From Dehalococcoidia bacterium (GTDB taxonomy: Bacteria > Chloroflexota > Dehalococcoidia > Plut-88900): a stretch of DNA of 64,000 nt. The stretch is from positions 2,176,001 to 2,240,000 of the forward strand of contig OZ240219.1 in NCBI GenBank assembly GCA_965197645.1, in the 5' to 3' direction. How positions within the stretch are numbered: position 1 is the stretch's first letter; each line of letters begins with the position of its first letter. This document shows, one piece after another, positions 2,821-58,568 of this stretch. Made by a program: the position numbers and the translations under genes. Below the pieces are notes generated by a model. That model ran no database searches, was not told the origin of the DNA, and was given only the letters and a program-made list of their open reading frames with translations.

Positions 2821-3523
2821 GCGCCTCGACTTTCTTCAGATATACCACGTTGGGTTCCGTGCCCAGCTTCTCGAGCAGCTTGTAGTGCCGATCATCCTTG
2901 GCCAGTTTGGCCACTTTGCTCTTCTTATCGTTGATATCCCCGAAGACCAGAGCGTCGGTGGGGCAGGTCTGGACACAGGCGGGCTGAAGCTCGCCGTCCT
3001 CCAGGTCCCGGCCGTCCTTCTCTATCTCCTGCTCCTTCCGCCTGATCCTCTGCACGCAGAAGGTGCATTTCTCCATGATTCCCCGGGTTCGGACAGTGAC
3101 GTCCGGGTTCAACTGGTTCTCCAGCGAGTCGGGCCACTCGGGCTCCCAGAAATTGAAGAAGCGGACGTTGTACGGATCGTTGTTGGCGCAGTAACGGGTA
3201 CCCACGCAGCGGTTGTAGACCTGTACGTTAAGCCCCTCGTTGTTGTGGTAGGTGGCGTAGACGGGGCAGACCGGTTCGCACGGGGCATTATCGCACTGCT
3301 GACACATGATCGGCAGGAACCTCGCCTTGACGTTGGGGAACTCGCCCTCCCAGTAGCGTTCAATCCGTATCCACTCTATGGCCCGCCGCTGGTGGAAGTG
3401 GTCTTCGTCGTTGATCGGGATGTTGTTCTCCGCTTGGCATGCCACTACGCAGGCCTGGCAGCCGGTACAGCGGTCGTTGTCCACCACCATCGTCCATTTG
3501 CGATTATCTTCCTGCTTGGACAA
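2813..3523 (-). CDS. 4Fe-4S dicluster protein (NrfC/DmsB/QrcC/ActB2-like)
   Basis: CTGCQACVVAC, CQQCDNAPCEPVCP, CVGTRYCANN, EKCTFC...PACVQTCP motifs. Confidence 0.92.
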   Translation of the reverse strand: MSKQEDNRKWTMVVDNDRCTGCQACVVACQAENNIPINDEDHFHQRRAIEWIRIERYWEGEFPNVKARFLPIMCQQCDNAPCEPVCPVYATYHNNEGLNVQVYNRCVGTRYCANNDPYNVRFFNFWEPEWPDSLENQLNPDVTVRTRGIMEKCTFCVQRIRRKEQEIEKDGRDLEDGELQPACVQTCPTDALVFGDINDKKSKVAKLAKDDRHYKLLEKLGTEPNVVYLKKVEAHG

Positions 3524-3534
3524 ATCAGTCCTCC

Positions 3535-5787
3535 TCAGTGGCTCTCGCCTGACCCGCCGTTACTCTCTTGGATTTGTATCAGATCGGTTTCCGGCGCCGG
3601 CAGGGCGACCACCGTACCCTCGAACTTGGGCAGGGTTCTCTCTTTGCTCGTCTTCGTTACCCGGACCTTGGTCGCATTCCAGGCCAGTGTCCCCGTGTGT
3701 ACGTCTACGAAGGGGGCGAGAATGGATATTGGGTTGGTGCCCCTATTCTCGGCGTAGCGGCCCATGCCTTGGTGTCCCTGTCCCACCGGCATGCTGACGG
3801 TACCCGGGGGGCTCCCCGGGTTCACGTAGGCCGGCGCCTCCAACGAGCCGTGTAAAGAGCGGATTTCTACTATATCGTTGGTCTTGACGGACAGCCGTTC
3901 CGCGTCGGCCATGCTGAGGTCCACCCACGTATCCCATACCACGGTGGTAATCGGGTCTGGGGTGGCCTGCAGCCAGGGCAGGCTGGCACCGCGACCGTCA
4001 GTCAATGCCAAGCTCTGGTAAAGGACCAGGTTGAACTCCTTATCTCCGGGGGCGCTCTCGAACGCCGGGCTTATCGCCTTCTGGGGCAGCTCGGCGAGAT
4101 TGACCTCTTTGCTCGGCTTGGAGTCCAGATCGTACCAGACGCCCCTCCGAAGCAACCCAAGCCAGAAGGTCTCGAAGTCTCCGGACTGGACAGAGCCTCT
4201 ATTCAACGCCTGGAGCTCCCTGGCTCCCTCTCGCAACGCATCCTTGAACGTGTTCCAGGGCAGCGCCGATGCCGCCCGCCCGCCCAGCTGCTTTGCAACC
4301 GCTATCAACTCGTCCCCAAAGGCGCTGGTGTTATAGAACTGCTTCACAGCCGGCTGTTGGTAGCTGACTGTTTCGTAGCCGGGGCCCGGTTCGGGGACGT
4401 CGTCGCCCCAGGACTCCAGGTAGGTGTGGTCCGGCATTATCAGGTCTGCCTGGGCCGTGGTCTCATCCATGAAACTGGAGAAGCTGGCGATGAATTCTAC
4501 GTTGGAAAGCGCATCCGGAAGCCCGACTTTGGCGGGTAGTCCGTAGACCGGGTTTGCTCCCCGGACCATCATCAGCTTGATATTGCCGTCCCTCATCCCG
4601 TCGACGATCCCCTGCCAGTCTTTGAACGTCGTGGGCGGTGGTTTGTCCATTCCAGACAACGGAGGCTCGGGATTGAAGTACATCCCACCCTTCTTGCCTA
4701 CGCTTCCAACCAGGGTGTTCAGGGCGTAAATCGCCATCAGGTTGAAGGTGCCGTTGGTATGGGCCGCCGCCGAGTTGCCGCCGATGGCGAGGCTGGGTTG
4801 GTTATGGGCGAAATCGCGGGCCAAACTCACGATCTTGGACGAACTGACGCCGATCTCATCGGCTACGGTGTTAGGATCGAAGGCCTGCAGCCGCTCGACC
4901 CCTTCGCCTTTGGTCATTGCACTTGCAGCCGCCGAATCGCCCAGTCCTTCATCCACGATGACGTGAGCCATGCTCAGTGCCAGGAGTCCCTCCATGCCGG
5001 GATTTACGTACACCCACTCGTCAGCGTTGGCCGCCGTCATGGAGAACCGGCTGTCCACCGCTACTATGGACGGGTCACCGTCCTTACCCTGCTGCATGGC
5101 GCCGTAGCCCCTGTTGTAGCGCACCGTAGAGAGCCAGGTCTCCAGCATGTCCGCTCCGAAGGACAGAAGGTATCTGGTGTTTTCCAGATCGAACTCGGGC
5201 AGGCGTTCCTCGTTGTAAAGCTCCTTCATCGCCCCCCGGAGGTTGGTGGTCCGCTCCATAGTCTCGTAGGCAGCGTATCGAGAGCCCACGCCGTCGGCGA
5301 ACCGTCTGGCTACTTTGGCCAGCTGACCCCGTAACGGCTCGGTGACCAGGAGCATCTGGCCTCGGGCGAACCGTCCTATCTGAGCGGCCAGATCCCGTCG
5401 GGCCTGGTCCCACGAGATATCTTCGTATTCGCCCGAACCCCTGGCTCCAACGAGGCGCTTCGGCCCGTTTATCCGGTCGGGATGATACAGCGCCTGAAGT
5501 CCGGCATGGCCTCGCACGCAGAGCTTGCCGCGGCTTATGGGATGGTTGGGGTTGCCCTCGATCTTCTTGGCCCGGCCCTCCATGACGCGGGTTACGATGC
5601 CGCATCCGGCAGGGCACTGGCCGCAGGTGCTGGCGTACCAATTGTCGGTGCCGCTGACCAAGTCTTCGGGCAACTCGACCGGGCTCTGTACCAGTATCTC
5701 CCTGTCCGCGAAGCCGCACGCCTTGAAGATCACCGCCCCGAGGGAGGAGATTCCGGCCAACTTTAGAAACTGTCGTCGCGAAGGCAC
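3535..5787 (-). CDS. Molybdopterin-oxidoreductase-family subunit (QrcB/ActB1-like) with Tat lipoprotein signal
   Basis: SRRQFLK Tat motif followed by FKAC; CGQCPAGC...KLC FS0 motif; C-terminal molydop-binding domain. Confidence 0.9.
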   Translation of the reverse strand: MPSRRQFLKLAGISSLGAVIFKACGFADREILVQSPVELPEDLVSGTDNWYASTCGQCPAGCGIVTRVMEGRAKKIEGNPNHPISRGKLCVRGHAGLQALYHPDRINGPKRLVGARGSGEYEDISWDQARRDLAAQIGRFARGQMLLVTEPLRGQLAKVARRFADGVGSRYAAYETMERTTNLRGAMKELYNEERLPEFDLENTRYLLSFGADMLETWLSTVRYNRGYGAMQQGKDGDPSIVAVDSRFSMTAANADEWVYVNPGMEGLLALSMAHVIVDEGLGDSAAASAMTKGEGVERLQAFDPNTVADEIGVSSSKIVSLARDFAHNQPSLAIGGNSAAAHTNGTFNLMAIYALNTLVGSVGKKGGMYFNPEPPLSGMDKPPPTTFKDWQGIVDGMRDGNIKLMMVRGANPVYGLPAKVGLPDALSNVEFIASFSSFMDETTAQADLIMPDHTYLESWGDDVPEPGPGYETVSYQQPAVKQFYNTSAFGDELIAVAKQLGGRAASALPWNTFKDALREGARELQALNRGSVQSGDFETFWLGLLRRGVWYDLDSKPSKEVNLAELPQKAISPAFESAPGDKEFNLVLYQSLALTDGRGASLPWLQATPDPITTVVWDTWVDLSMADAERLSVKTNDIVEIRSLHGSLEAPAYVNPGSPPGTVSMPVGQGHQGMGRYAENRGTNPISILAPFVDVHTGTLAWNATKVRVTKTSKERTLPKFEGTVVALPAPETDLIQIQESNGGSGESH

Positions 5788-5862
5788 TCTATTTTCCCGT
5801 TACAACTAGTCCGTAGCTAAACGCTCGACATAACTGATGTTTTCTCGACATAACAATCATGA

Positions 5863-6423
5863 TTAGTAGTGGCAGACCACGCAGTCCGTAGGTGCATTGT
5901 TGGCCCTATGACAGTCCACGCAGTCGCCCATCTTGAGGTCTCTAACCTGCTCTACCACGGCCATCCCTCCCACGTCGCCATGACACTCGGAACACGGGAT
6001 TCCGGCCGTAATGTGGGGCTGGTGTGTAAATTGCACGTGATCGGGAAGCCTGTGCACCCGCTTCCAGTCCACCGGAGTCCCGGTATCGAAGAAGTTGCGC
6101 AGCTTGGCCAACTCGGGGCTCTCCGCCCTTATGAAATCGCCGTCCCCCAGGTCCTTGTGGCAGAACAGGCACTGCTCCAGGGCGGGTATGGAAGCTGCTT
6201 CCTGGTCCTCGACGGTACGGTGGCAGAAGGTGCACTCTATCCCTACTGTTTCCACGTGGGTAGCGTGGGAGAAGGCTATAGGCTGCGTGGGACCTTCCCC
6301 CATACCGAACACCTGGAATGGCGTGGTGAACACCGCTCTAACGAAGAATACGGCGGCTAGAACGAGGACTACAGTAACACAAAGGCCAAAGAGGGGAGCG
6401 GTTATTTTGACGATTGTCGGCAT
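5863..6423 (-). CDS. Membrane-anchored pentaheme cytochrome c (ActA/QrcA-like)
   Basis: Five CxxCH motifs (CTFCH, CLFCH, CSECH, CVDCH, CVVCH); N-terminal TM helix; QPIAFSH and LPDHVQFTH motifs. Confidence 0.92.
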   Translation of the reverse strand: MPTIVKITAPLFGLCVTVVLVLAAVFFVRAVFTTPFQVFGMGEGPTQPIAFSHATHVETVGIECTFCHRTVEDQEAASIPALEQCLFCHKDLGDGDFIRAESPELAKLRNFFDTGTPVDWKRVHRLPDHVQFTHQPHITAGIPCSECHGDVGGMAVVEQVRDLKMGDCVDCHRANNAPTDCVVCHY

Positions 6424-9751: not shown

Positions 9752-10483
9752 ATGATGAGTGGTGAAGCTACAAGGGACTTACTACCCCCCTACCCTCCCT
9801 ACTCCGCGTGGCGCCAGCTGCTGCAGGAGCTGCGGTCGGATGTCCCGGCCCGGATAGACCAGAGCTATCTCAGGCTGCACAAATACAACCAGTCCACCGT
9901 GTCCATGTTGCAGAACGCCCTCCGATTTTTGCAGTTGATCGATCAACAGGACGCGCCGACTCCGGAGCTACGATCATTGGTCAAGTCCGAGGGTGAGGAG
10001 TACCAGACCCAATTGCGCCAACTGCTCGGGCAGAGCTACGGGCCGCTGATCTCCGGAATCGATCTCTCTAACATCACCCCGGACCTGCTGCGGGAGCAGT
10101 TCCAGGCGCTGGGGGCCAGGGGCGATGTTGCGCGTAAGTGCGGCTCCTTCTTCGTAGCCCTGGCCAAAGACGCCGGGCTGCGTATCTCGCCTCACCTCCG
10201 ACTCCGCCAGCGCCAGCCCGGCGGACAGACAACTTCTCAACGTCCATCCAAGCCCAAGCGCTCCGCCCCAAATCAGCCCCAGCGCCAGGCCCCGAAGCCG
10301 GTTGCGGAACCTGTAGCGTCCAACAAGGCGCCGGACAACTCCGCCATCAGCCTTATCCTGGACAAGTTTCCTGCCTTTGACCCCAACTGGGACCAGGAGA
10401 CGGTAGAAAGGTGGCGGGACAGCATGGAAGCGCTTCTCAAGACCGCCCTGGGCAAAGGGAACGCTCCGCAGCCGAGCAGCTAG
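9752..10483 (+). CDS. DUF5343-like protein
   Basis: N-terminal PPYPPY...VPARIDQSYL...ALRFLQLID...PT and C-terminal LDKFPAFDPNW, recalled as DUF5343 family features. Confidence 0.7.
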   Translation: MMSGEATRDLLPPYPPYSAWRQLLQELRSDVPARIDQSYLRLHKYNQSTVSMLQNALRFLQLIDQQDAPTPELRSLVKSEGEEYQTQLRQLLGQSYGPLISGIDLSNITPDLLREQFQALGARGDVARKCGSFFVALAKDAGLRISPHLRLRQRQPGGQTTSQRPSKPKRSAPNQPQRQAPKPVAEPVASNKAPDNSAISLILDKFPAFDPNWDQETVERWRDSMEALLKTALGKGNAPQPSS

Positions 10484-10539: not shown

Positions 10540-11130
10540 ATGGTCAAACCTCCGATAGGGATAGACCTGGATGGGGTAATATGCCGCCCTCCGTTGGGTC
10601 TTAACCTAAGCATATACAGGGGACCCTATGTCGGCCGCAAGAAACGAAGTCTCTATCCTAAGTTCGGCGAGAATCCCCTCGTCTCCTTGGTCTTGACATT
10701 GAAATACATGGGCCGCCGGCCGATGTATGATGCCCGCTCCGGCCTGCAGGCCATTCGGGAGCACAGAGACCTGTTCCTCGTCACCAGCCGAAACAGCCTG
10801 GTCCATGATCAGGTGGTGGCATGGCTCTCCCACAACGATCTTCTCCCGCTCTTTTCCGCCATCCACACCAACGACTCCGGGCTCCCTTCGCCCGAGTTTA
10901 AAGAGCGGAAGGTGCGTGAGCTGGGCATATCGGAGTTCGTCGACGACGATGGTCGTGTCGCCGACTATCTCGCCCGGCGAGGCCTTGCTCGAATCTACCT
11001 GAGAGACTGGCCCCGGAACCACGGCTACCGGTACGCGGACAATGTGACGCGAGTCCCTTCCCTACTCCGGGTGGCAACCCTCCTGGCCGAGCGGGATGGC
11101 GAAATGCCGCCGGGTGCACCGGCGGCATGA
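10540..11130 (+). CDS. HAD-superfamily protein (5'-nucleotidase-like)
   Basis: IDLDGV, VTSR, K and FVDD HAD motifs. Confidence 0.8.
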   Translation: MVKPPIGIDLDGVICRPPLGLNLSIYRGPYVGRKKRSLYPKFGENPLVSLVLTLKYMGRRPMYDARSGLQAIREHRDLFLVTSRNSLVHDQVVAWLSHNDLLPLFSAIHTNDSGLPSPEFKERKVRELGISEFVDDDGRVADYLARRGLARIYLRDWPRNHGYRYADNVTRVPSLLRVATLLAERDGEMPPGAPAA

Positions 11131-11146
11131 AAGATGCCCCTGATAT

Positions 11147-11175
11147 TTGACGGGCATATTTTGTTACCTTACACT
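11147..11175 (+). promoter_or_regulatory. Sigma70-type promoter of the lipid operon
   Basis: TTGACG-17 nt-TACACT upstream of ATG 11223. Confidence 0.6.
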
Positions 11176-11222: not shown

Positions 11223-11966
11223 ATGAAGGCAGTTCTACTGGCAGGGGGGCGGGGAACACGGTTGCGCCCCCTCACCGATGACATCCCGAAGTCGATGGTG
11301 CCCGTGTGCAATAAGCCGATCCTGCAATGGCAGCTGGAGTGGTTGAAGGCACAGGGTGTCAGCGAGTTCGTCCTATCTCTGGGCCACCTGCCCGATAGGG
11401 TCCGCGATCACTTTGGCGATGGCGGAGACTTCGGCGTGTCGATCCAGTATGCTGTGGAAGACGAGCCGTTAGGCACCGCCGGCGGGCTGCGAAGGGCACT
11501 GGAAGTAGCCCGGATCGATGGCCCCTTCTTCGCAACCAACGGAGATGTGCTCACCAATCTGAACCCCGGCCGATTGGAGGCCCAGCGTCGGGCCTTGAAG
11601 GCGGTGGGCGGGATCAGCCTCGTGGCCCTGACCTCGCCCTATGGGATCGTCGAGATGGGTGGAAACGGTCTGGTCCGGTCCTTCCGTGAGAAACCCACCC
11701 TGCCCGACTACTGGCTCAGCGCGGGGGTCTACAGCTTCGGCCCCGAGATACTATCCTACCTCCCTGTTAGGGGAAGCCTGGAGCACGAGGTGTTCCCTCT
11801 GCTGTCCAGGCGTAATCTTCTGGCGGCATACAAGTTCGATAGCTGCCTGTGGCGCTCCATCGATGGACACAAGGACCTGGAGGAAGCGTCAGAGCATATG
11901 GCGAGCATGGCCGATCCGACATTGAGCGCTACGCCCCAATCCCTCAGTCCTCAGCCCACTCCGTGA
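11223..11966 (+). CDS. Nucleotidyltransferase (sugar/polyol-phosphate NTP transferase)
   Basis: LAGGRGTRLRP...PK, EPLGTAG, NGD and EKP motifs. Confidence 0.9.
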   Translation: MKAVLLAGGRGTRLRPLTDDIPKSMVPVCNKPILQWQLEWLKAQGVSEFVLSLGHLPDRVRDHFGDGGDFGVSIQYAVEDEPLGTAGGLRRALEVARIDGPFFATNGDVLTNLNPGRLEAQRRALKAVGGISLVALTSPYGIVEMGGNGLVRSFREKPTLPDYWLSAGVYSFGPEILSYLPVRGSLEHEVFPLLSRRNLLAAYKFDSCLWRSIDGHKDLEEASEHMASMADPTLSATPQSLSPQPTP

Positions 11967-11987
11967 GTACACCTATCTACGCAGCCC

Positions 11988-14291
11988 ATGGGAAAGCTTA
12001 GCGAATTCTACTCGGGCAAGACGCTATTCCTCACGGGAGGAACGGGCCTGGTCGGCAAGGTACTGGTGGAGGCGATGCTCCGCCAGCTCTCCGATATCGA
12101 GAAGATATACGTTCTAATACGCCCCAAGCCCCGCCCGGGCGGCGTCACCGTCACTAGCGAAGACCGGCTTCGGCAGGAGGTCCAGGGCTCAGCCGCCTTC
12201 GACCTGCCGCGATCAGAACAGAGAGAGACTCTCTCCGATCTCTTCCAAGCCAAGGTCAAGGCGGTGGAGGGCGACCTCGCGTTGGAGAAGATGGGCCTCG
12301 ATGACGATACCTACCGGACGCTGCAGCGAGAGGTCAATATCCTGATCAACTGCGCTGCTATCGTCTCCTTCGATGCCGCCATAGATAACGCCCTGGCCCT
12401 GAATGCCCTGGGCCCCAGACGGCTCCTGGAGTTCGCCAGAGGGTGTGAGGACGTCGGCGTGGTCCAGGTCTCCACCTGTTATGTGAATGCGGCCCGCACC
12501 GGGTCCATCTATGAAGAGCCCTTAGACCCTCGATGGACCGTCGGCCAGGCTGGCGGCGTCGATAAGAGACCTTACGAGGTCGACGAGGAGATTGCCGCCA
12601 TTGCCAAACGCGCCCGGGAGATTAGAGAGGCCTCGGGAGAACCCAAAACAAAAGCCGATACCGAACTGATTGACGGCAAGGTCTCCGAGTTCGGCATGAA
12701 GTGGGCCCAGGCCCGCGGCTGGCACGATGTATACACCTTCACCAAGGCCATGGGCGAGCAGATATTCGGCAAGGATTTGGGCACGACCCGGGGTGCGATC
12801 ATCCGACCCGCCATCATCGAAAGCGTGTGGCGTTCCCCCCTACCCGGCTGGCTGAACGGGTATCGAATGCTGGACCCTCTCATCGTAGCCTACGGCCGCG
12901 GCCGTTTGATCGATTTCCCCGGCAACGGATCGAGCATACTCGACATAATACCTGTTGATTTAGTCGTAAACTCCATTCTGGCCATAGCTCGCGAGGTATA
13001 TCAGGGCCGGTCCAAACCGGTCTATCAGATAGCGTCCGGAATGGAGAATCCGTTGACCCTCCAGGGGTTTGCCGACCTGGTGGACGAGTACTTCCAGGAG
13101 AACCCCTTCGAGAGCCAGACGAACGGTCAGGGACGCGGCAGGGAGCTTAAGAAGCCCACCTTTCCCAATACTCAGACCTTCCTTCGCAGGTTGAAGCGCC
13201 GGTACTACCTTCCTGCTAAGGTGGCCAAAGCCCTGGTGACACCCCTATCCTTTACACACTGGGGCCGGGCCAAGAAGGTGGATCTCCGTACCAAGCTCTC
13301 CGCTCTGGAGCGTCTTCATCAATACGGGCGGCTCTACGGTCCCTACGCCGAGAGCAACTGCGAGTTTCAGACCGTTAACACCAGGGAGGCCTGGCGAGCC
13401 CTCGATGCCGAGGACCGGGAGAGCTTCAACTTCGACATCTCCCAGCTTGACTGGCCCACCTACATCAAACGGGTACACGTGCCCGGGGTGAAGAAATATC
13501 TACTGGGCATGACTGATGAGCCACCGAACGAAGCGGAATTGGAAGCGGCCCTGGAGGCGCACGGCCCAGCTTCGCCACTGCCCCAATCGTTGATGGGCAA
13601 CCTGCCCACCTTCGAGGAGCTGGAGCCGTGGCTGAGGCCAAATATAGTCAGGAGCACCATCAGGAAGATGGGTTCGGCCGTGGTGTTTATCGGGTTCAAT
13701 CTCTGGGTTCGCCACCATTCCAAAGGGTTGGAGAACGTGCCGGACAAGGGGCCCTTCATAGTCGCTTCCAACCACTCCAGCCATCTGGACGCTCCGGCCA
13801 TTCTCTTCGCCCTATCAAAGCGCCCCTTTGAGATCCATCCGACGGCGGCCAAGGACTACTTCTTTGGGGACAAGCTCAAAGCGATTCTGGTCCGCAGCGT
13901 GTTCCGAGCAATCCCCTTCGAAAGGCGCGGCCCGGCAACCGATGGTCTTCACCTACCCCTTGGCATACTGAAAATGGGACGCCCCATGGTCTTCTTCCCC
14001 GAAGGCGGCAGAAGTAAGTCCGGCAAGATCCTGACCTTCAAGAACGGGATAGGTATGCTTGGCCTTATGTCAGGCGCTCCCGTGGTACCCGCTCGAATCT
14101 CTGGATCGTACCAGTCCATGCCTAAAGGCAGCCGTTTCCCCAAACGAGGCCGGGTGACGGTCCGGTTCGGGCCCCCGATTCTCACCGAGCCCTACAGGGC
14201 GCGTATCGATGCCACCAGCATCGCCGAGGTCTGCCGAGAGCTTTCCAGCGACGTGCAGAAGGCCGTCGAGGCGCTGAATGGCAAACGATAG
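11988..14291 (+). CDS. Fatty acyl-CoA reductase (FAR) fused to PlsC-type acyltransferase
   Basis: TGGTGLVGK, YTFTK, IRPAIIES, DIIPVD (FAR); NHSSHLD and FPEGGRS (acyltransferase). Confidence 0.9.
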   Translation: MGKLSEFYSGKTLFLTGGTGLVGKVLVEAMLRQLSDIEKIYVLIRPKPRPGGVTVTSEDRLRQEVQGSAAFDLPRSEQRETLSDLFQAKVKAVEGDLALEKMGLDDDTYRTLQREVNILINCAAIVSFDAAIDNALALNALGPRRLLEFARGCEDVGVVQVSTCYVNAARTGSIYEEPLDPRWTVGQAGGVDKRPYEVDEEIAAIAKRAREIREASGEPKTKADTELIDGKVSEFGMKWAQARGWHDVYTFTKAMGEQIFGKDLGTTRGAIIRPAIIESVWRSPLPGWLNGYRMLDPLIVAYGRGRLIDFPGNGSSILDIIPVDLVVNSILAIAREVYQGRSKPVYQIASGMENPLTLQGFADLVDEYFQENPFESQTNGQGRGRELKKPTFPNTQTFLRRLKRRYYLPAKVAKALVTPLSFTHWGRAKKVDLRTKLSALERLHQYGRLYGPYAESNCEFQTVNTREAWRALDAEDRESFNFDISQLDWPTYIKRVHVPGVKKYLLGMTDEPPNEAELEAALEAHGPASPLPQSLMGNLPTFEELEPWLRPNIVRSTIRKMGSAVVFIGFNLWVRHHSKGLENVPDKGPFIVASNHSSHLDAPAILFALSKRPFEIHPTAAKDYFFGDKLKAILVRSVFRAIPFERRGPATDGLHLPLGILKMGRPMVFFPEGGRSKSGKILTFKNGIGMLGLMSGAPVVPARISGSYQSMPKGSRFPKRGRVTVRFGPPILTEPYRARIDATSIAEVCRELSSDVQKAVEALNGKR

Positions 14292-15012
14292 CGCCGGAGC
14301 AAACGTAGGCGCCTTCTTCGACGTCGATGGGACTATCGCCAACTCCAACCTCATCCACCCCTACGCTGACTTCCGTCTGAGCAACGCCGGCCCCATCGGT
14401 AAGATGGCATGGCTCGCCCGAATCGCCTCCAGTCTGCCCTACTACGCTGTCCTGGATACCCTCAACAGGGCCTGGTTCAACCGGGCGTTCATTCGCAGCT
14501 ACAAGGGAGTGCACGTGGAACGGCTCTACTCATGGGCCCGGTCTCGAGGCCGGGAGTTCTGGTCGAGCCGCCTGTATCCCGCTGCCGTGACCCGGATTCA
14601 GTTTCACCAGGAGCAGGGCCACAAGATCGTGCTGGTGACCGGAGGGTTGAAGCCTGTCGTCGAGCCGCTGGCCCAAATGCTGAATGCCGATGGTCTTGGC
14701 GCCGTGGTGCCGGAGACTGTGGGCTCCCGTTTGACGGGCGAGACCGTCGGAGGCGTACTCTCCGGAGCAGCCAAGGCGAAGACCGCCGTCCGGATGGCTG
14801 ACGAGCTCGGCATAGACCTGAACAGCAGCTATGCCTACGCCGACAGCTACGCCGACGTTGAGTTCCTCCAGTGCGCCGCTCATCCGATAGCGGTCAATCC
14901 GGACCGCCGGTTACGCAGAGTCGTCCGAGCCAGGGGGTGGGAATCTCACCGGTGGGCCAAGGCCAGGGCCTCCGAACTATCGCTCTCCACCACCTCGATG
15001 AAAAGGCGGTAG
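14278..15012 (+). CDS. HAD-IB family phosphatase (SerB-like)
   Basis: FFDVDGT, VTG, K, AYADSYAD and AVNPD; overlaps the upstream gene by 14 nt. Confidence 0.9.
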   Translation: MANDSAGANVGAFFDVDGTIANSNLIHPYADFRLSNAGPIGKMAWLARIASSLPYYAVLDTLNRAWFNRAFIRSYKGVHVERLYSWARSRGREFWSSRLYPAAVTRIQFHQEQGHKIVLVTGGLKPVVEPLAQMLNADGLGAVVPETVGSRLTGETVGGVLSGAAKAKTAVRMADELGIDLNSSYAYADSYADVEFLQCAAHPIAVNPDRRLRRVVRARGWESHRWAKARASELSLSTTSMKRR

Positions 15013-15037
15013 ACTTTCAGCAATCCGGTGATCGACG

Positions 15038-16276
15038 ATGAAAGCCCTCCTCTTCAAGAAGAGCATCCCCAGATATCTATGGACTCGTGTACTGACCTCG
15101 GGATCGTCCAGGTTGGCTACAGCGCCGGGTTCCTGCCTGTCCCTGCAGGACGTTCCGGCCCCCCGTTTGCCCAACTCCTCCTGGGTACGGGTGAGGCCTC
15201 TCCTCAGCGGTATATGCGGCTCTGATCTATCGGTGATCAGGTGCCAGGGAAGCGCCTTTCTTTCCGGCATGACCTCTTTCCCGTTCATCCCGGGGCACGA
15301 GGTGTACGGGGAGGTGATCGAGACGGGACCGGAGGTGAAGACCGTCGGCCTCGAAGATCGGGTCGTGGTGGAGCCTGCCCTCGGCTGTGAAGTCCGAGGT
15401 TTCCCGGATCTCTGTACGGCATGTCGGGACGGCAGGCATGCCAACTGCCTGCGGGTTACTCAAGGAGACATTGCAGAAGGCCTGCAAACAGGTTTTTGTC
15501 GCAGTGTCGGCGGTGGCTGGGGAGACCAGCTGGTCGCCCACCAAAGCCAGCTTCACAAAACTGCACCGGACCTGCCGGCCGAGGCCGCCGTGCTGGTGGA
15601 GCCCTTCAGCTGCGCCGTACACGCGGTGTTGCGATCTGGCGTTGGCCAAAACGACCGTGTGTTGGTAGTGGGTTGCGGCCCCATCGGGCTCCTCACCGTC
15701 GCTGCGTTGCGGAGCCTGGTGGCCAACTGCGAGATCGTCGTCGTTGCTAAACATCCGCATCAGCGGGCGCTGGCACAATCTCTCGGAGCCGACCACATCG
15801 TCTCAGAGGGGCAGAAGGGCTACGAAAGGCTGGCCAGCCTAACCGAGGCGCAGATCAGGAAGACGGCCCTGGGCAAACCAGCCGTTCTAGGTGGTTTCTC
15901 CCACGTTTTCGAGTGTGTCGGTTCGCCGGGGGCGCTGGAAGACGCCGTGCGGTGGGCATCGGACAACGGAACCGTGATGATGCAGGGAATGCCCTCCGGG
16001 GCAGGGGCCGATCTGGTACCCTTGTGGTACAAGCAGGTCAGCCTAGTCGGGAGCTACGCCTACGGATTGGAAGACGTGAAGGGCGGACCGGTCAAGACCT
16101 TCCAGCTGGCGTTGGACCTGATGAGAAAGGACGGGCTGGCCGAAAGGCTGGCCCAACTGGTGCGGCACAAGTACCCGTTGAGCCGCTACAAAGAGGCCAT
16201 CTATACGGCTATGCACGCCGGACGGTTGGGCAGTGTGAAGACCGTCTTCGATGTCACCGACGGCGCTCTAAACTAG
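15038..16276 (+). CDS. Zinc-dependent (MDR) alcohol/polyol dehydrogenase
   Basis: GICGSD, GHE, structural Zn cysteines and GCGPIG. Confidence 0.9.
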   Translation: MKALLFKKSIPRYLWTRVLTSGSSRLATAPGSCLSLQDVPAPRLPNSSWVRVRPLLSGICGSDLSVIRCQGSAFLSGMTSFPFIPGHEVYGEVIETGPEVKTVGLEDRVVVEPALGCEVRGFPDLCTACRDGRHANCLRVTQGDIAEGLQTGFCRSVGGGWGDQLVAHQSQLHKTAPDLPAEAAVLVEPFSCAVHAVLRSGVGQNDRVLVVGCGPIGLLTVAALRSLVANCEIVVVAKHPHQRALAQSLGADHIVSEGQKGYERLASLTEAQIRKTALGKPAVLGGFSHVFECVGSPGALEDAVRWASDNGTVMMQGMPSGAGADLVPLWYKQVSLVGSYAYGLEDVKGGPVKTFQLALDLMRKDGLAERLAQLVRHKYPLSRYKEAIYTAMHAGRLGSVKTVFDVTDGALN

Positions 16277-16288
16277 ACGAGGACAAAC

Positions 16289-17899
16289 ATGGCGAAAACC
16301 CCTACCCAAGCCCTTGAACTGGACAAGGAGAAGCTTGTCACCCGAGTGGAGAAGTCAGGCGAGCGGTATCTGTTCTTCTACGGCGAGGGGTTTCGGTACG
16401 AGAAGCTGCCGGTGGGAACGCGAGTCGTCTACCCGCCTCCACCCCTCCCCCCCATCGAAGACGTGGACGCGGCCATCGAGCAGGCACTGGAGAACCCACT
16501 GGACGCCGATCCGCTCTCGGCCCAGCTCCGAGCCGGGATGAAGCTGACCATCGCCTTCGACGACATCTCCCTGCCCCTGCCCCCGATGCGTTCGCCCGAC
16601 ATCCGGAAGAGGGTCATCGAGAAGGTGGTCGCCAAAGCGACAGAGCGCGGCGTCGAGGACATCCACCTCATCGCGGCCCTGGGTCTTCATCGCTCCATGA
16701 CCCCCGGCGAGCTGAAGGGAATCTTGGGTCGAAAGCTGTTCAACCAGTTTCACCCGGACAGGCTGTACAACTTCGATGCCGAGGACAAGGAGAACCTCAT
16801 AGTCCTGGGAAAGACCTCCCGCGGGCAGGAGGTGGAGATATCCCGAAGGGTGGGCGAGTCGGACCTGCTGGTGTACGTCAACATCAACCTGGTCTCCATG
16901 GATGGGGGCGAGAAATCGATCAACACGGGGCTGGTCAGCTATCGCAGCATCCGCCATCATCACAACGTCGATACGCTGATGCACTCCGAGTCCTACATGG
17001 ACCCGACGAGGTCAGCCCTCCACGACGCCTGCCAGGGCATGCAGACCGTAGTCGACGAGAACCTCAAGGTGTTCAAGATCGAGACCGCCATCAACACCAA
17101 CGCCTTCCCATCGGTCCTGAGGCACCTCCAGATGCAGGAGTCCGAGTGGAAGATATGGGACAGAGCGACATTCCATGCCAACCGGTTGTCCCTGGACCGC
17201 ATGCCCTTCCAGCTCCGCTGGAACATATTCCAGAAGATGAAGTCTCCCTACGGGATGACCGACATCGCCGCCGGCGCCACTGCCCCGGTGCACGATCAGA
17301 TACTGAGCAGCGTATACCGGCAGCAGGCTGTACCCGTATCCGGTCAGGCCGACGTGATGGTGTTAGGGATGCCGTACCTCAGTCCCTACAACGTCAACTC
17401 CTATTTGAACCCGATACTGGTCCACGTTCTTGGAGTGGGGTACGTCTTCAATCTGTATCGCGGGAAGCCGTTGGTCCGTCGAGGCGGGGTGATGATATTC
17501 ACCCATCCCCTCGAAGAACGGTTCAACGAGACCCACCATCCGTCATACGTGGACTTCTATAACAACGTGCTGACCGAGACACGGGACGCCGCCGAGATCG
17601 AGTCCCGGTTCGAGGAGGAGTTCGCTCACAACCAGCGATACATAGACCTGTACCGAAACTCCTACGCCTACCACGGCGTCCATCCCTTCTACATGTGGTA
17701 CTGGGCCTGCTACGGCCAGGATTATCTGGGCAGGATCATCGTGGTGGGCGCAAAGGACAAGGCAGTGGCCGACAGGCTGGGATACGAGACCGCCCCCAAC
17801 ATGGAGATGGCCCTCGCCATGGCCCAGGATACCGTAGGCAACAACCCCGAAATATCCATGTACCACTTCCCGCCCATATTCCTGTGCGACGTAGACTAG
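16289..17899 (+). CDS. LarA (lactate racemase)/DUF2088-superfamily protein
   Basis: ALENP...L, FDDISLP, IAALGLHR, DGGEKS and IRHHH motifs align with the LarA N-terminal domain. Confidence 0.8.
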   Translation: MAKTPTQALELDKEKLVTRVEKSGERYLFFYGEGFRYEKLPVGTRVVYPPPPLPPIEDVDAAIEQALENPLDADPLSAQLRAGMKLTIAFDDISLPLPPMRSPDIRKRVIEKVVAKATERGVEDIHLIAALGLHRSMTPGELKGILGRKLFNQFHPDRLYNFDAEDKENLIVLGKTSRGQEVEISRRVGESDLLVYVNINLVSMDGGEKSINTGLVSYRSIRHHHNVDTLMHSESYMDPTRSALHDACQGMQTVVDENLKVFKIETAINTNAFPSVLRHLQMQESEWKIWDRATFHANRLSLDRMPFQLRWNIFQKMKSPYGMTDIAAGATAPVHDQILSSVYRQQAVPVSGQADVMVLGMPYLSPYNVNSYLNPILVHVLGVGYVFNLYRGKPLVRRGGVMIFTHPLEERFNETHHPSYVDFYNNVLTETRDAAEIESRFEEEFAHNQRYIDLYRNSYAYHGVHPFYMWYWACYGQDYLGRIIVVGAKDKAVADRLGYETAPNMEMALAMAQDTVGNNPEISMYHFPPIFLCDVD

Positions 17900-17902
17900 A
17901 CA

Positions 17903-18811
17903 ATGGATATAGGTCAGCGTTGGACGGTGATCGCCAACCCCGTATCGGGAAAGGGTAAGGGGCGAAAGCTGGGCGGCCGGGTTGCTAGGCTGCTGGCCCG
18001 TTCCGGCGTAGAGTCCAACCTCCTCTGGACCAGCGGCCCCGGAGATGCGGAACGGCTGGCCGGCGAGTCGATATCCAAGGGAGTTGACGGCATAGTTGCC
18101 TGTGGCGGCGACGGCACTCTTCACGAGGTGGTCAACGGCGTGTACGGCTCTTCCGAGCACCCCGAAACCGTGCCCATCGCCGTGGCTCCCGCCGGCCGGT
18201 GCAACGATTTCCGCCGCACCCTGAATCTGCCTAAAGAGCCGATGGAGACCGTAGGAAGTATCGTGGATGGCTCCATCAAGCGGGTAGACCTTGGACGGAT
18301 CGAGGGCCGCTACTTCACCACGGTGGCAACCCTGGGCTTCGATAGCGCCGTGAGCCGGTACGTAGCCAGCGGCAGACATCCCTTCTTTCTCACCGGCGCC
18401 CCAGCCTACGTGTACGCAGTCCTCGCTCAGCTGATCAGCTACCACGATGTCCCGGTCAGATTGAAGGGGGACTCTCTGGACTTCGAAGGCGCCGTCTTCC
18501 TCGCTGCCACGGGCAACACCCCCGTCTATGGCGGCGCCATGAAGATAGCCCCCAGCGCCGTGGCGGACGATGGCTTCTTGGACCTGTGCCTCGTCAGGTC
18601 CGTCAATCGCTGGGAGGTGCTGAAGATGCTGCCTCGGATATTCAATGGGGGCCACGTCCACCATCCGGCGGTATCAATGCACCGGCTAACCCGATTGGCC
18701 ATCGAATCGGACGAGAGCCTTCCCGTCTGGGCGGACGGTGAGCCGATGGCGCAGACGCCGACAACCATAGAGGTGGTGCCCGAGGGTCTCTCTATAGTGG
18801 CGCCGGGGTAG
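17903..18811 (+). CDS. Diacylglycerol/lipid kinase (DgkB/YegS family)
   Basis: NPVSG, GGDGT, GRCNDF, GGAM and DGE motifs. Confidence 0.9.
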   Translation: MDIGQRWTVIANPVSGKGKGRKLGGRVARLLARSGVESNLLWTSGPGDAERLAGESISKGVDGIVACGGDGTLHEVVNGVYGSSEHPETVPIAVAPAGRCNDFRRTLNLPKEPMETVGSIVDGSIKRVDLGRIEGRYFTTVATLGFDSAVSRYVASGRHPFFLTGAPAYVYAVLAQLISYHDVPVRLKGDSLDFEGAVFLAATGNTPVYGGAMKIAPSAVADDGFLDLCLVRSVNRWEVLKMLPRIFNGGHVHHPAVSMHRLTRLAIESDESLPVWADGEPMAQTPTTIEVVPEGLSIVAPG

Positions 18812-18833
18812 CCCGGCCTCTCCACGACGCGAA

Positions 18834-18872
18834 AAGAGGCGCCCCGATTTGACCGGAGCGCCTCTTCTCTTT
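18834..18872 (+). terminator. Intrinsic terminator of the lipid operon
   Basis: AAGAGGCGC...GCGCCTCTT stem followed by CTCTTT. Confidence 0.7.
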
Positions 18873-19015
18873 CAGCCTGTCCTATAAAGACGGATGTTTT
18901 TCTCCCAGCCGCCCGCCCTCAGACGGTTTTGTAGCCGGGGGCACATCCCCCAAGCCCCCTGCCAGAGGGAAGTTTCCCTCTGGACTCCCTCTATTCGAGG
19001 TTCTCAGGCAGGCTT
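18873..19015. mobile_element. Degenerate copy of the 143-bp MITE
   Basis: Colinear with 20778..20920 (core GGGGGCACATCCCCCA.GCCCCCTGCCAGAGGGAAGTTTCCCTCTGGACTC); decayed terminal inverted repeats. Confidence 0.7.
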
Positions 19016-20777: not shown

Positions 20778-20920
20778 GAGCTTGTCTCAAAAGTACGGAC
20801 GTCTTAGTCCCAACCGCCCGCCCTCGGAAGGTTTTGTAGCTGGGGGAACATCCCCCAGGCCCCCTGCCAGAGGGAAGTTTCCCTCTGGACTCTCTCAAAG
20901 CAGGGTTCTGAGACAGGCTC
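20778..20920. mobile_element. MITE with terminal inverted repeats and 4-bp target duplication
   Basis: Ends GAGCTTGTCTCAAAA / TTCTGAGACAGGCTC; AACA on both sides (20774-20777 and 20921-20924). Confidence 0.75.
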
Positions 20921-56469: not shown

Positions 56470-56485
56470 GAAGGTCCCTCCTATC

Positions 56486-57631: not shown

Positions 57632-57686
57632 GGCGATTTACTCCTTTTCAGCGGCTGTAGCCTTCCGACGTGAAATTGCGAAGGGA

Positions 57687-58568
57687 CTAGGTGTGGCCAC
57701 GGGCCTCACCGATGCGGCTTTTCTTTCTTGTTATGGGCAGCACCTCGTTGAGGCTGCCCGATCGGAACCCATCCATGTCCAACGTGACATAAGAGTACCC
57801 TATAGTGCGGAGATACTCGGTTATGCTGCTCCTGGTCGCCCCGTCGAGGAGGACGGGGAAATCGTCGGGGTGCACCTCGATCCTGGCGACGGCATCGTGG
57901 TGACGCACCCTGAGCTGTGTTATTCCCAGGCCTCGCAGGAACTCCTCCGCCTTGGCGATCCGGTCCAGCGCCTCCACGGTGACCGGCGTGCCGTAGGGTA
58001 TGCGGGAGGAGAGGCAGGCTTGGGCCGGCTTGTCCCAGGTGGGAAGGCCCATCTCTTTGGATAGCGCTCGTATCTCCGCCTTGTTGAGCCCCACCTCGAC
58101 CATTGGACTTCGCACACGGTAGTCCTTGGCCGCTTTCAAGCCGGGCCGAAAATCCCCCAGATCGTCGGTGTTGGCGCCGTTGGCTATCGATGCGAACCCC
58201 TCTTCCTCTGCCAGCTTCGTGAGCACGGTGTACAGCTCGTCCTTGCAGAAGTAGCAGCGGTTGGGCCTGTTTGCCTGATAGTCGGCCCTCTCCACCTCGT
58301 TGGTGCGGATGACCCGATGGTTCAGCCCGAGGCGGCTCGCCAAGGCTACCGCATCATCCAGCTCTGACGGCGCCAGGCTGGGCGAGGCGGCGGTGACGGA
58401 CAGGGACCGGTACCCCAGGACCTGATGGGCCGTGTTGGCGAGAAAAGCGCTGTCAACGCCGCCCGAATAGGCCACTATCACCGAGCCCATCTCCCGGAGG
58501 AGTGAGTTTAGGTCGGCCAGTTTCTCCGTCGCGTCTTTGGCGCGTTCGGTCTCAGGCTTGAGTTTCAT
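57687..58568 (-). CDS. larE: ATP-dependent sulfur transferase for the nickel-pincer cofactor
   Basis: SGGVDS, RCYFCK, DFRPG, KPAQACLSSRIPYG and GFRSGS motifs. Confidence 0.92.
   Translation of the reverse strand: MKLKPETERAKDATEKLADLNSLLREMGSVIVAYSGGVDSAFLANTAHQVLGYRSLSVTAASPSLAPSELDDAVALASRLGLNHRVIRTNEVERADYQANRPNRCYFCKDELYTVLTKLAEEEGFASIANGANTDDLGDFRPGLKAAKDYRVRSPMVEVGLNKAEIRALSKEMGLPTWDKPAQACLSSRIPYGTPVTVEALDRIAKAEEFLRGLGITQLRVRHHDAVARIEVHPDDFPVLLDGATRSSITEYLRTIGYSYVTLDMDGFRSGSLNEVLPITRKKSRIGEARGHT

Follow-up and report, generated by a model that had tools for sequence, protein, structure and literature searches.

A stretch of 64,000 nucleotides from a Dehalococcoidia genome (the window) contains a six-gene operon that is probably this Dehalococcoidia family's version of the bacterial elb-type pathway for alkyl-ether glycerolipids. 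The conserved core of the pathway would consist of four activities: a fatty acyl reductase (FAR), an acyltransferase (AT), a HAD-IB phosphatase and a nickel-pincer (NPN) enzyme of the LarA (lactate racemase) family. Every one of the 12 genomes sampled from the window's own family has the operon, but outside that family it is found in only 2 of 289 genomes of the class.

Gene content and boundaries of the operon

The ORFs from 11223 to 18811 form a real operon of six genes, all on the + strand and all apparently intact, and their spacing (in order +21, -14 [an overlap], +25, +12 and +3 nt) confirms the tight coupling that had been claimed for them. The first gene (11223..11966) encodes a sugar-1-phosphate nucleotidyltransferase of 247 amino acids (Pfam NTP_transferase, 128 bits), for which an NCBIfam search gave no equivalog at cut-off, the best models all scoring far below. 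The second (11988..14291) encodes a FAR-AT fusion of 767 amino acids that combines NAD_binding_4 (188.6 bits), Sterile (55 bits) and Acyltransferase (72.7 bits) Pfam domains in one protein, and that is the sole strong FAR match and one of three PlsC-type acyltransferases in the genome. By its predicted domains, the fusion is ElbD-like without the ligase and ACP, that is, of FARAT-like architecture, with a PlsC/AGPAT-type acyltransferase. The lack of ligase and ACP, which had been remarked on earlier, applies to the fusion but not to the genome, as a separate ligase-ACP-AT gene lies ∼790 kb away. The third gene (14278..15012) encodes a HAD-IB family hydrolase/phosphatase of 244 amino acids (TIGR01490, 115.5 bits, cut-off 98.3; Pfam HAD, 99.8 bits), the counterpart of ElbB. 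It is followed by a Zn-dependent medium-chain dehydrogenase of the polyol or threonine-dehydrogenase type (15038..16276; 412 amino acids; ADH_N and ADH_zinc_N), whose nearest NCBIfam models (Tdh, scyllo-inosose 3-dehydrogenase, idonate 5-dehydrogenase and galactitol-1-P 5-dehydrogenase) all score under cut-off, by the LarA homologue (16289..17899), and by a soluble lipid (diacylglycerol) kinase of the YegS/Rv2252/BmrU type (17903..18811; 302 amino acids; TIGR00147, 162.7 bits, cut-off 118.65; DAGK_cat and YegS_C).

The sigma-70 promoter of the preliminary description is a candidate only: the hexamers TTGACG-17-TACACT are present upstream of the first gene (11147..11175, + strand; 9 of 12 positions matched), but the frequency of such sites is not above chance (2 found versus 2.8 ± 1.7 in shuffles). 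Terminator-like hairpins are indeed found 3' of the last stop (18833..18893, + strand): one at ∼18833-18870, identified by eye as an inverted repeat with a T-rich run behind it, and a site at 18877-18893 identified by a scanner. Contigs from the sponge metatranscriptome run X11 match positions 11366-11556, 18365-18615 and 18619-18801 with 3, 0 and 2 differences, which is a weak hint of expression of the operon, DNA carry-over being possible.

Upstream of the operon, with a terminator-like hairpin (11124-11138) between them, lies an ORF of 196 amino acids (10540..11130, + strand), for which Pfam and PDB sequence searches gave no match. Its AlphaFold model (pLDDT 76, pTM 0.75) predicts a HAD-superfamily fold: a Foldseek search against the PDB gave 136 matches at E ≤ 0.001, and those listed all belong to the HAD superfamily or are enzymes engineered from its members. 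Counterparts that are 53-56% identical lie directly 5' of the FAR-AT gene in two relatives (loci L008 and L009). Judging from the model, the ORF is possibly an accessory phosphatase.

Conservation of the cluster across phyla

Loss of synteny in relatives had been set in advance as the observation that would speak against the proposed pathway; instead, we find that synteny around the LarA homologue is conserved far above chance. In 80 loci with a LarA homologue 50-71% identical to that of the window, the neighbours within 6 kb include a FAR in 66 loci, an acyltransferase in 71, a HAD-IB protein in 72 and a Zn-dehydrogenase in 71; when only the 52 loci with sufficient flanking sequence are counted, the corresponding numbers are 49, 49, 49 and 48. 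According to the titles of the sequence records, the loci span at least eight phyla, with carriers in Chloroflexota, Actinomycetota, Acidobacteriota, Poribacteria, Planctomycetota (Gemmataceae), Cyanobacteria, Thermodesulfobacteriota and Binatota. In a Zixiibacteriota locus, the LarA homologue is present and these neighbours are absent. The LarA homologue is the best-conserved gene and the most constant member of the cluster, in agreement with the central role first ascribed to it.

These counts also bear on the standing of three genes that had been seen as additions to the operon. The Zn-dehydrogenase belongs to the core, and the lipid kinase recurs in some elb-like clusters: it is adjacent in 6 of the 80 loci (four from Dehalococcoidia, L013 and L025) and more distant in L017, and a sponge preprint reports DAG kinases adjoining elb-like clusters. 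The nucleotidyltransferase is a lineage-specific local add-on, outside the conserved core. In none of the 80 loci does it come within 6 kb of the LarA homologue, and its 55%-identical orthologues in two close relatives (G001 and G002) lie ∼140 kb from the cluster, in G002 among unrelated genes.

The way in which the parts are fused differs between lineages. FAR and HAD share one frame with no stop between them in 55 of the 80 loci (Pfam agrees in the 3 of 3 that were checked), and the FAR-AT fusion is found in four, all from Dehalococcoidia. In four other loci (L012, L017, L025 and L082), a full ElbD-type FAR-ligase-ACP-AT gene directly adjoins the LarA homologue, and the gene order in L082 (HAD, LarA homologue, ElbD-like) is the same as that of elbB-elbC-elbD. 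The relation to the elb ether-lipid system thus holds. Because the same parts adjoin the LarA homologue with shifting fusions, the operon is a variant of the Myxococcus elb system, a re-fused version of that gene set and not the distinct route suggested in the preliminary description.

Comparison with the elb genes of Myxococcus xanthus

The M. xanthus elbABCDE genes (MXAN_1531-1527; Lorenzen et al. 2014, as reported in PMC9131029 and PMC13012113) and the window operon have in common the FAR and AGPAT-type acyltransferase domains, and both have an adjoining HAD-type hydrolase and a further conserved protein, here the LarA homologue. The differences are that the window fusion lacks the ligase and ACP of ElbD, that a Zn-dehydrogenase takes the place of the ElbA/ElbE-type SDRs, and that the window operon additionally encodes a lipid kinase and a nucleotidyltransferase. 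In PMC9131029, ElbB is a HAD protein, which bears out the earlier statement that a HAD gene lies next to elbD, and ElbC, encoded beside elbD, is 'a protein of unknown function'. For a DUF2088 gene next to elbD, also named earlier, we found no statement in the accessible literature; ElbD-type genes do adjoin the LarA homologue in the four loci above. By analogy of gene order, we infer that the LarA homologue is the counterpart of ElbC.

Genetic work in M. xanthus shows that alkyl and vinyl ether lipids require ElbD; it covers ElbD and possibly ElbE, the elbB phenotype was ascribed to polarity, and the accessible text describes no elbC mutant (PMC9131029). ElbD homologues are no guarantee of ether lipids, since Pontiella has them and no ether lipids were detected in it (PMC11868695). 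Alternatively, the operon could make a different product from the fatty alcohol or aldehyde, for example wax esters, alkyl phosphates or long-chain diol or polyol lipids. The polyol-type dehydrogenase would then tailor a polyol head or backbone together with the sugar-like LarA homologue. The similarity of the dehydrogenase to polyol and sugar-phosphate dehydrogenases, the suspected carbohydrate role of the closest solved LarA homologues and the nucleotidyltransferase as first gene would all fit such a product. Several carriers (Streptomyces, Actinomadura and Nocardioides) are not known as ether-lipid producers, which we count in its favour as well. However, the same core adjoins bona fide ElbD-type genes, with ElbD tied to ether lipids by the genetics just cited; no aldolase, wax synthase or glycosyltransferase is found in the operon; and the cluster is conserved without the nucleotidyltransferase. 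We consider a non-ether product very unlikely.

The active site and cofactor of the LarA homologue

The LarA homologue (536 amino acids) has a Lar_N domain and is assigned to the LarAH14/15/16 family (NF052592, 818.3 bits, cut-off 740). No other protein of the genome matches Lar_N, yet larB, larC and larE are all encoded: larE (57687..58568, - strand; TIGR00268, 338 bits, cut-off 150) lies 39 kb from the operon, and larC (G000:C1:1647625-1648758) and larB (2773113-2773739) lie elsewhere in the genome. Similarly, among 50 other genomes that carry the LarA homologue, it is the single Lar_N match in 33, and larC is detected in 48, in 8 of them no more than 7 kb away.

The closest solved structures are those of single-histidine LarA homologues, 9q2u (1.8e-37) and 9q3j. 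Using residue roles from Desguin 2020 and PMC12611868, we find that the LarA homologue retains counterparts of D72, H108, K184 and H200, among them one catalytic His and the Lys and His that bind the nickel pincer; its D92, H134, K209 and H225 do not vary in any of the 81 aligned sequences. Counterparts of H174 and R75 are missing. The second acid/base His is absent from all 81 family members, and His is never among the four commonest residues at positions 192-205; at position 95, equivalent to R75, the carboxylate-binding Arg is replaced across the family by Leu (77 of 81), Ile or Val. The single-histidine enzymes LarASp and LarABw (PDB 9q2u, 9q3k and 9q3j; PMC12611868), which together with groups 14/15 of Desguin 2020 are the closest known members of the superfamily, align with both LarA domains (residues 29-244 and 346-522) and share the Lys and His that bind the cofactor, the Asp that binds ribose, the one catalytic His and the lack of a second one. 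They differ in having an invariant Asn for the second His and Lys for R75, and in being set among glycolytic or sugar genes (PMC12611868), whereas the window family has a four-residue deletion at the second-His site (HMMER alignment), Leu at the R75 position and lipid-gene surroundings.

Because the second catalytic His and the carboxylate-binding Arg are missing, the LarA homologue is unlikely to be a racemase, and the stereo-inversion once proposed for it is disfavoured. In its favour, inversion at a C2 stereocentre is the reaction of every LarA-superfamily member characterised so far, M. xanthus TG-1 is written 'rac' in PMC9131029, and it has been suggested that the subfamily with the Asn substitution contains one-base racemases that work in one direction (PMC12611868). 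Nevertheless, given the residues that are lost and the doubts of Desguin 2020 that such homologues invert stereocentres, it is highly improbable that the LarA homologue is a true epimerase that gives unusual lipid stereochemistry by inverting C2 in backbone glycerol or in some other polyol intermediate. None of the seven substrates assayed was turned over by a Frankia LarAH14 enzyme; a Phytophthora 'LarAH15' is a gluconate 2-epimerase, although that number may not denote the LarAH group of the window homologue.

Other routes to the ether bond

A direct FAR-acyltransferase fusion of similar layout occurs in the plasmanyl pathway of FARAT and AGPS, in which FAR-GNPAT fusions work with AGPS in M. 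xanthus (MXAN_1675/1676) and in the protists Tetrahymena and Dictyostelium (PMC13012113). The window genome also encodes an AGPS homologue (529 amino acids; G000:C1:2257259-2258848), whose best solved relatives are the AGPS entries 2uuu (5.9e-57) and 4bby (5.9e-51), compared to 1.3e-21 for D-lactate dehydrogenase, and an AGPS-like gene (at least 41% identity) is present in 12 of the 50 other genomes with the LarA homologue. Thus, an enzyme other than the LarA homologue could form the ether bond in this organism. In a eukaryote-like route of this kind, FAR would give the fatty alcohol, the acyltransferase acyl-DHAP and the AGPS homologue the ether bond, the Zn-dehydrogenase would reduce alkyl-DHAP, and the LarA homologue, HAD protein and kinase would serve later or accessory steps. 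We regard this route as rather unlikely. The AGPS gene is separated from the operon by ∼62 kb and has ABC-2 transporter and rhodanese genes as neighbours, whereas the operon partners of the fusion are the HAD protein, Zn-dehydrogenase, LarA homologue and kinase. Moreover, an AGPS query gave no match at E ≤ 1e-20 in 23 of the 50 genomes, including each of the four Dehalococcoidia relatives with the same operon; two of these four are recorded as complete chromosomes. The ElbD route of M. xanthus works without AGPS (PMC9131029), and the AGPS route leaves the status of the LarA homologue as most constant member unexplained. The anaerobic enzymes Ger and PlsA-PlsR likewise make bacterial sn-1 alkyl ethers (Sahonero-Canavesi 2022, cited in PMC11150832), but they belong to unrelated protein families, and none of their domains are found in the operon.

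A proposed pathway

In the elb-type pathway that we favour, the products would be 1-O-alkyl glycerolipids. The fatty acyl reductase would form a fatty aldehyde or alcohol, with the PlsC/AGPAT-type acyltransferase presumably acting from its position fused straight onto the reductase, and the HAD-IB phosphatase and the LarA-family enzyme would fill the places of ElbB and ElbC. The polyol-type Zn-dehydrogenase, present in most lineages, would act on the glycerol-phosphate backbone by interconverting keto and hydroxy groups at C2, a role that may fall elsewhere to the SDRs ElbE and ElbA or to an alkyl-DHAP reductase. The lipid kinase of some lineages would turn alkyl(acyl)glycerol back into a phosphatidate-level lipid to which a head group can be attached. 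Having both a phosphatase and a kinase in the operon seems futile unless the two enzymes have different intermediates as substrates.

We hypothesize that the LarA homologue forms the ether bond. Most likely, its cofactor would be a transient acceptor of hydride from a secondary alcohol of a lipid intermediate; the resulting carbonyl would permit chemistry at the neighbouring carbon, for example the exchange of an sn-1 acyl group for the FAR-derived fatty alcohol, and the hydride would then be returned to the same face. The LarA homologue may in this way perform the uncharacterized chemistry of the elb pathway.

A LarA homologue is encoded with a reductase-acyltransferase fusion

All six ORFs of the operon (11223-18811) lie on the + strand at the positions stated in the preliminary description. 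The first (11223-11966, +, 247 aa) encodes a sugar-1-phosphate nucleotidyltransferase, recognized by Pfam and NCBIfam models with no specific equivalog at cut-off, and the second (11988-14291, +, 767 aa) encodes a fusion of a fatty acyl reductase (FAR) and an acyltransferase, with matches to NAD_binding_4 (188.6 bits), Sterile (55 bits) and PlsC-type Acyltransferase (72.7 bits). These are followed by a HAD-IB hydrolase (14278-15012, +, 244 aa; TIGR01490, 115.5 bits against a cut-off of 98.3), a Zn-dehydrogenase whose nearest relatives are threonine, inosose, idonate and galactitol-1-P dehydrogenases (15038-16276, +, 412 aa), the LarA homologue (16289-17899, +, 536 aa) and a YegS-type lipid kinase with DAGK_cat and YegS_C domains (17903-18811, +, 302 aa; TIGR00147, 162.7 bits against 118.65). 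The LarA homologue scores 818.3 bits against NF052592 (‘LarAH14/15/16’, cut-off 740), and the match covers model positions 2-519 of 520.

The intergenic spacings are, in operon order, +21, -14, +25, +12 and +3 nt, with the start of the HAD-IB gene overlapping the stop of the FAR-acyltransferase gene by 14 nt. The translations contain what we take to be nucleotide-binding glycine motifs, a reductase Tyr/Lys pair, an acyltransferase His/Asp block, a HAD Asp-x-Asp start and a kinase GGDGT motif. A promoter-like site is present at 11147-11175, of a kind that is no commoner in the window than in shuffled sequence, and hairpins are found 3' of the last stop codon of the operon.

The neighbourhood of the LarA homologue is conserved across phyla

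Conserved synteny in relatives, which the preliminary description had looked to as a check, is indeed found. When genome contigs were searched for relatives of the LarA homologue, at least 595 were found and the best 80 (50-71% identity) were kept; the window proteins were compared with these 80 loci by tblastn, counting as a neighbour any match within 6 kb of the LarA homologue. Four components are neighbours of the LarA homologue in 66-72 of these best 80 of at least 595 relatives: the FAR part in 66, the acyltransferase part in 71, the HAD-IB gene in 72 and the Zn-dehydrogenase in 71. The lipid kinase is a neighbour in 6 of the same 80 loci, and the nucleotidyltransferase, by tblastn, in none. 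Restricting the count to the 52 loci that have 5 kb or more of upstream and 3 kb or more of downstream sequence gives similar results, with FAR, the acyltransferase and HAD-IB each present in 49 and the Zn-dehydrogenase in 48. The 80 loci come from Chloroflexota, Actinomycetota, Acidobacteriota, Poribacteria, Gemmataceae, Cyanobacteria, Thermodesulfobacteriota and Binatus, although the sample is mostly Actinomycetota and related genomes within it are non-independent; no Myxococcota locus is among these best 80 of at least 595 relatives.

The same parts are variously fused across the loci. In 55 of the 80 loci, FAR and HAD share a reading frame that no stop interrupts, and this fusion was upheld by Pfam in all three loci checked (L027, L029 and L035). 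The FAR-acyltransferase fusion seen in the window is found in all four Dehalococcoidia loci. In four others (L012, L017, L025 and L082), a full ElbD-type FAR-ligase-ACP-acyltransferase of 1455-1498 aa directly adjoins the LarA homologue. In the cyanobacterial locus L040, the genes near the homologue include a ligase-ACP-acyltransferase, a HAD gene and a short-chain dehydrogenase (SDR).

Within the class, a LarA homologue above the family cut-off is present in 14 of 301 sampled genomes, comprising all 12 from the window's own family (including the window's genome) and 2 of the 289 others. We also noted a second, shorter LarA-like paralogue in most genomes of this family (for example, at G070:C1:2447400-2448806 in one relative), which has an open frame of ∼486-518 aa and scores 210-230 bits against NF052592, below the cut-off.

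Genes added to the operon and other features of the window

The nucleotidyltransferase has orthologues (55% identity) in two other genomes, G001 and G002, located ∼140 kb from the clusters of those genomes, and the G002 orthologue sits among unrelated genes. Since this gene is a neighbour in none of the 80 loci and its orthologues are far from the clusters, we consider it a local addition. We rejected the idea that the nucleotidyltransferase and a downstream amidohydrolase represent a rearrangement shared with G002, because the two amidohydrolases are only 27% identical. Immediately upstream of the operon, a 196-aa ORF (10540-11130, +) matched no sequence family; it is conserved just upstream of the FAR-acyltransferase gene in two of the compared loci, L008 and L009. 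Its modelled fold is that of a HAD-superfamily hydrolase, and it may be a second phosphatase of the locus. The preceding 243-aa ORF (9752-10483, +) has a low-complexity Pro/Gln-rich middle and a weak match to DUF5343 (E 0.0017, below cut-off), with counterparts of 38-42% identity upstream in L008 and L009.

The other genes in the window belong to unrelated metabolism. Three genes at 2813-6423 (-) resemble QrcABC, a menaquinone reductase, with multihaem cytochrome, molybdopterin-like and Fe-S subunits that score below equivalog cut-offs. A gene at 30826-33744 (-) encodes a 972-aa YdiJ-like fusion of an FAD-linked oxidase and a GlpC-like Fe-S domain (637.8 bits against a cut-off of 1350), and the gene after it encodes a HAD phosphatase of the PpaX or phosphoglycolate-phosphatase type. 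A urease alpha-subunit-like gene is found at 45598-47274 (-), scoring 712.8 bits against PRK13207 (cut-off 354) and 652.4 against TIGR01792 (cut-off 680), with no further urease subunit among the scanned neighbours. A 22-nt palindromic element of the CCAGAGGGAAGTTTCCCTCTGG type is intergenic at 18962-18983, 20867-20888 and 30774-30795; with up to 3 mismatches, there are 5 matches on both strands compared to 0 expected. Metagenome contigs at ∼18937-18991 have very high depth and many loose ends. These observations suggest that the element is a dispersed REP-like repeat.

The operon is probably a variant of the elb cluster

The genes that surround the LarA homologue resemble the elb ether-lipid genes of Myxococcus xanthus, in which genetic evidence shows that alkyl and vinyl ether lipids depend on ElbD (PMC9131029). 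As in ElbD, FAR and PlsC/AGPAT-type acyltransferase domains are combined in one protein, the 767-aa fusion, and a HAD-type hydrolase adjoins the reductase-acyltransferase just as ElbB, described as a HAD-like protein, adjoins the elb genes (PMC9131029). Unlike M. xanthus ElbD, the window fusion has neither an acyl-CoA ligase (AMP-binding) domain nor an ACP domain, as had been reported in the preliminary description. The operon has a Zn-dehydrogenase instead of an NAD-dependent epimerase/dehydratase SDR of the ElbE/ElbA type, such as that present in L040. The gene order in L082 (HAD, LarA homologue, ElbD-like) is that of elbB-C-D, and this order, together with the ElbD-type neighbours, leads us to read the operon as a re-fused elb cluster. 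The operon is real and, on this reading, is a variant of the elb-type cluster, and the suggestion that it specifies a distinct route gives way to one in which the same parts are variously fused.

The LarA homologue would then be the putative counterpart of ElbC. PMC9131029 and PMC13012113 present ElbC, the neighbour of elbD, as a protein or domain without an assigned function. In the ESM Atlas, a Lar_N cluster matched at a score of 0.92 has Myxococcota as its commonest phylum, a lead towards this equivalence.

The cofactor pathway is retained, but the racemase active site is not

In the window's genome (3.21 Mb in one contig, 94% complete), Lar_N matches one protein alone, the LarA homologue of the operon, yet all three genes for making the nickel-pincer cofactor (NPN), larB, larC and larE, are present, each above its cut-off. 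Similarly, among 50 other genomes that carry the LarA homologue, 48 have larC and 33 have the homologue as their sole Lar_N match; leaving out two unpublished genomes (G031 and G044), the numbers are 47 and 31 of 48. In 8 of the 50, larC and the LarA homologue are no more than 7 kb apart. We conclude from these counts that the cofactor pathway is maintained for the LarA homologue. The larE gene itself is inside the window (57687-58568, -), in a region (55681-58568, -) where it adjoins an L-rhamnonate-dehydratase-like enolase-family gene and a PhzF-family isomerase, and no LarA homologue.

Over both of its domains, the LarA homologue aligns with its closest solved relatives, the single-histidine homologues 9q2u/9q3k (1.8e-37) and 9q3j (4.9e-28); next come malate racemase (9.8e-13) and the LarA of L. 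plantarum (3.4e-08). We mapped residues by HMMER alignment to 9q2u and 6d6z, and applied the residue roles from Desguin 2020 and PMC12611868 to an alignment of 81 family sequences. D92, H134, K209 and H225 are invariant in all 81 and correspond to D72, which binds ribose, H108, the first catalytic His, K184, which binds the cofactor, and H200, the Ni ligand, in reference LarA numbering (Desguin 2020; PMC12611868). The position of the second catalytic His, H174, is a gap in the HMMER alignment of the window protein, and His is not among the four commonest residues at any of positions 192-205 of the 81-sequence alignment. R75, the residue that contacts both the phosphate of the cofactor and the carboxylate of the substrate (Desguin 2020; PMC12611868), is replaced at position 95 by Leu in 77 sequences, Ile in 3 and Val in 1. 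In total, 107 of the 536 positions are identical in at least 80 of the 81 sequences, and a near-invariant C-terminal His/Trp/Tyr cluster includes H335, H417, H462, H465 and W470-W472.

The second catalytic His and the carboxylate-binding Arg are thus both missing from the racemase/epimerase site, which counts against the earlier proposal that the LarA homologue inverts backbone stereochemistry. Groups 14 and 15 have no equivalent of H174 (PMC12611868), and such homologues may not invert a stereocentre, another hydride-mediated reaction being possible (Desguin 2020). Frankia LarAH14 showed no activity with any of the seven substrates tried. An enzyme called ‘LarAH15’ in Phytophthora acts as a gluconate 2-epimerase and its pocket is GntE-like, although its number may denote another group. 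For the LarA homologue of the operon, we rejected the role of stand-alone sugar-acid epimerase in view of its linkage to FAR, HAD and acyltransferase genes across phyla.

Other ether-lipid candidates are encoded elsewhere in the genome

The operon fusion is one of three PlsC-type acyltransferases in the genome. A stand-alone ligase-ACP-acyltransferase of 830 aa (AMP-binding, PP-binding and Acyltransferase domains; G000:C1:1395575-1398067, equivalent to L103:9576-12068, - strand) is encoded ∼790 kb from the operon, among restriction-modification, HNH and metallo-beta-lactamase-fold genes. This protein corresponds to the C-terminal two thirds of an ElbD, and therefore the half of ElbD that is ‘missing’ from the fusion exists separately in the genome.

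An ether bond might also be made by an alkyl-DHAP synthase (AGPS), as in the FARAT/AGPS plasmanyl route. The genome resembles this route in having both a FAR-acyltransferase fusion and a 529-aa AGPS homologue (G000:C1:2257259-2258848, equivalent to L102:10260-11849, - strand, outside the window), but the two are unlinked, the latter being ∼62 kb past the operon and adjoining two ABC-2 transporter pairs and a four-domain rhodanese. Its PDB matches favour AGPS (2uuu, 5.9e-57) over D-lactate dehydrogenase (1.3e-21), and it is a candidate for a second route to ether-bond formation, of the eukaryote-like kind also known from M. xanthus. Queried with this protein, 27 of the 50 carrier genomes match at E≤1e-20 and 12 of the 50 at 41% identity or more, and AGPS was not found at E≤1e-20 in the four Dehalococcoidia relatives that share the operon, two of which are recorded as complete chromosomes. 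By this search, the operon therefore does not as a rule require AGPS. The PEDS1/CarF desaturase (PF10520) had no match in this genome or in any of 14 control genomes.

A proposed role for the LarA homologue

On balance, we favour the reading that this is an elb-type ether-lipid operon in which the LarA homologue is a catalytic member that is not a racemase. What we observed is a set of genes, how it is conserved and fused, the genes for the cofactor and the pattern of active-site residues; from these we infer a mechanism in which the FAR part would supply a fatty aldehyde or alcohol, the acyltransferase part would acylate an acceptor at the glycerol-phosphate level, the Zn-dehydrogenase would set the redox level of C2, and the HAD enzyme and kinase would shuttle intermediates between the glycerol and phosphatidate levels. 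The LarA homologue would carry the cofactor but has only one acid/base residue and no carboxylate site. We read it as a transient oxidant, which would oxidise a secondary alcohol, allow chemistry at the neighbouring carbon and return the hydride to the same face. The most appealing candidate reaction would exchange the sn-1 acyl for an alkyl group, as AGPS does on acyl-DHAP.

It is rather unlikely, in our estimate, that the LarA homologue (ElbC type) forms the ether bond itself in the AGPS-independent bacterial pathway. In that case, NPN would take up hydride temporarily, either from C2 of 1-acyl-glycerol-3-phosphate or, in a ‘hydrogen-borrowing’ etherification, from the fatty alcohol. While the carbonyl persists, the FAR-derived alkyl group could take the place of the acyl group, after which the hydride would be returned. 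If so, one redox-neutral enzyme would replace AGPS and alkyl-DHAP reductase, and the LarA superfamily would gain its first lipid substrate and its first reaction other than an isomerisation.

DNA runs from three studies contain at least half of the sampled words of the operon. Contigs from a sponge metatranscriptome are nearly identical to parts of its first and last genes, with most of the operon free of contig cover, a gap that speaks neither for nor against expression; this match is a weak hint of expression, as DNA can occur in RNA libraries.

How the ether bond arises by the ElbD route in aerobic bacteria is an unsolved problem, and reviews describe the conversion of fatty acids to alkyl ether lipids as unknown (PMC9131029). 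Bacterial alkyl glycerol ethers, including precursors of the brGDGT palaeoclimate markers, are credited to elb genes from genome data alone, and ElbD homologues of Chloroflexota, Poribacteria and Acidobacteriota have already been published, as have DAG kinases that neighbour elb-like clusters (PMC11868695; sponge preprint). LarA homologues without the second His have no known substrate (PMC12611868; Desguin 2020). We found no literature that links a nickel-pincer enzyme to ether lipids, although supplementary tables (Desguin 2020 S1/S3 and the sponge-paper clusters) may list this context. The operon and its relatives bring these two problems together, in that they suggest a lipid as the substrate of an orphan nickel-pincer enzyme and put forward a candidate catalyst for a lipid step that has none assigned; the four- or five-gene set provides a small testable system that does not require the 1,450-aa ElbD. 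The chief value of these results is that they give an orphan nickel-pincer enzyme a testable place in the synthesis of bacterial ether lipids.
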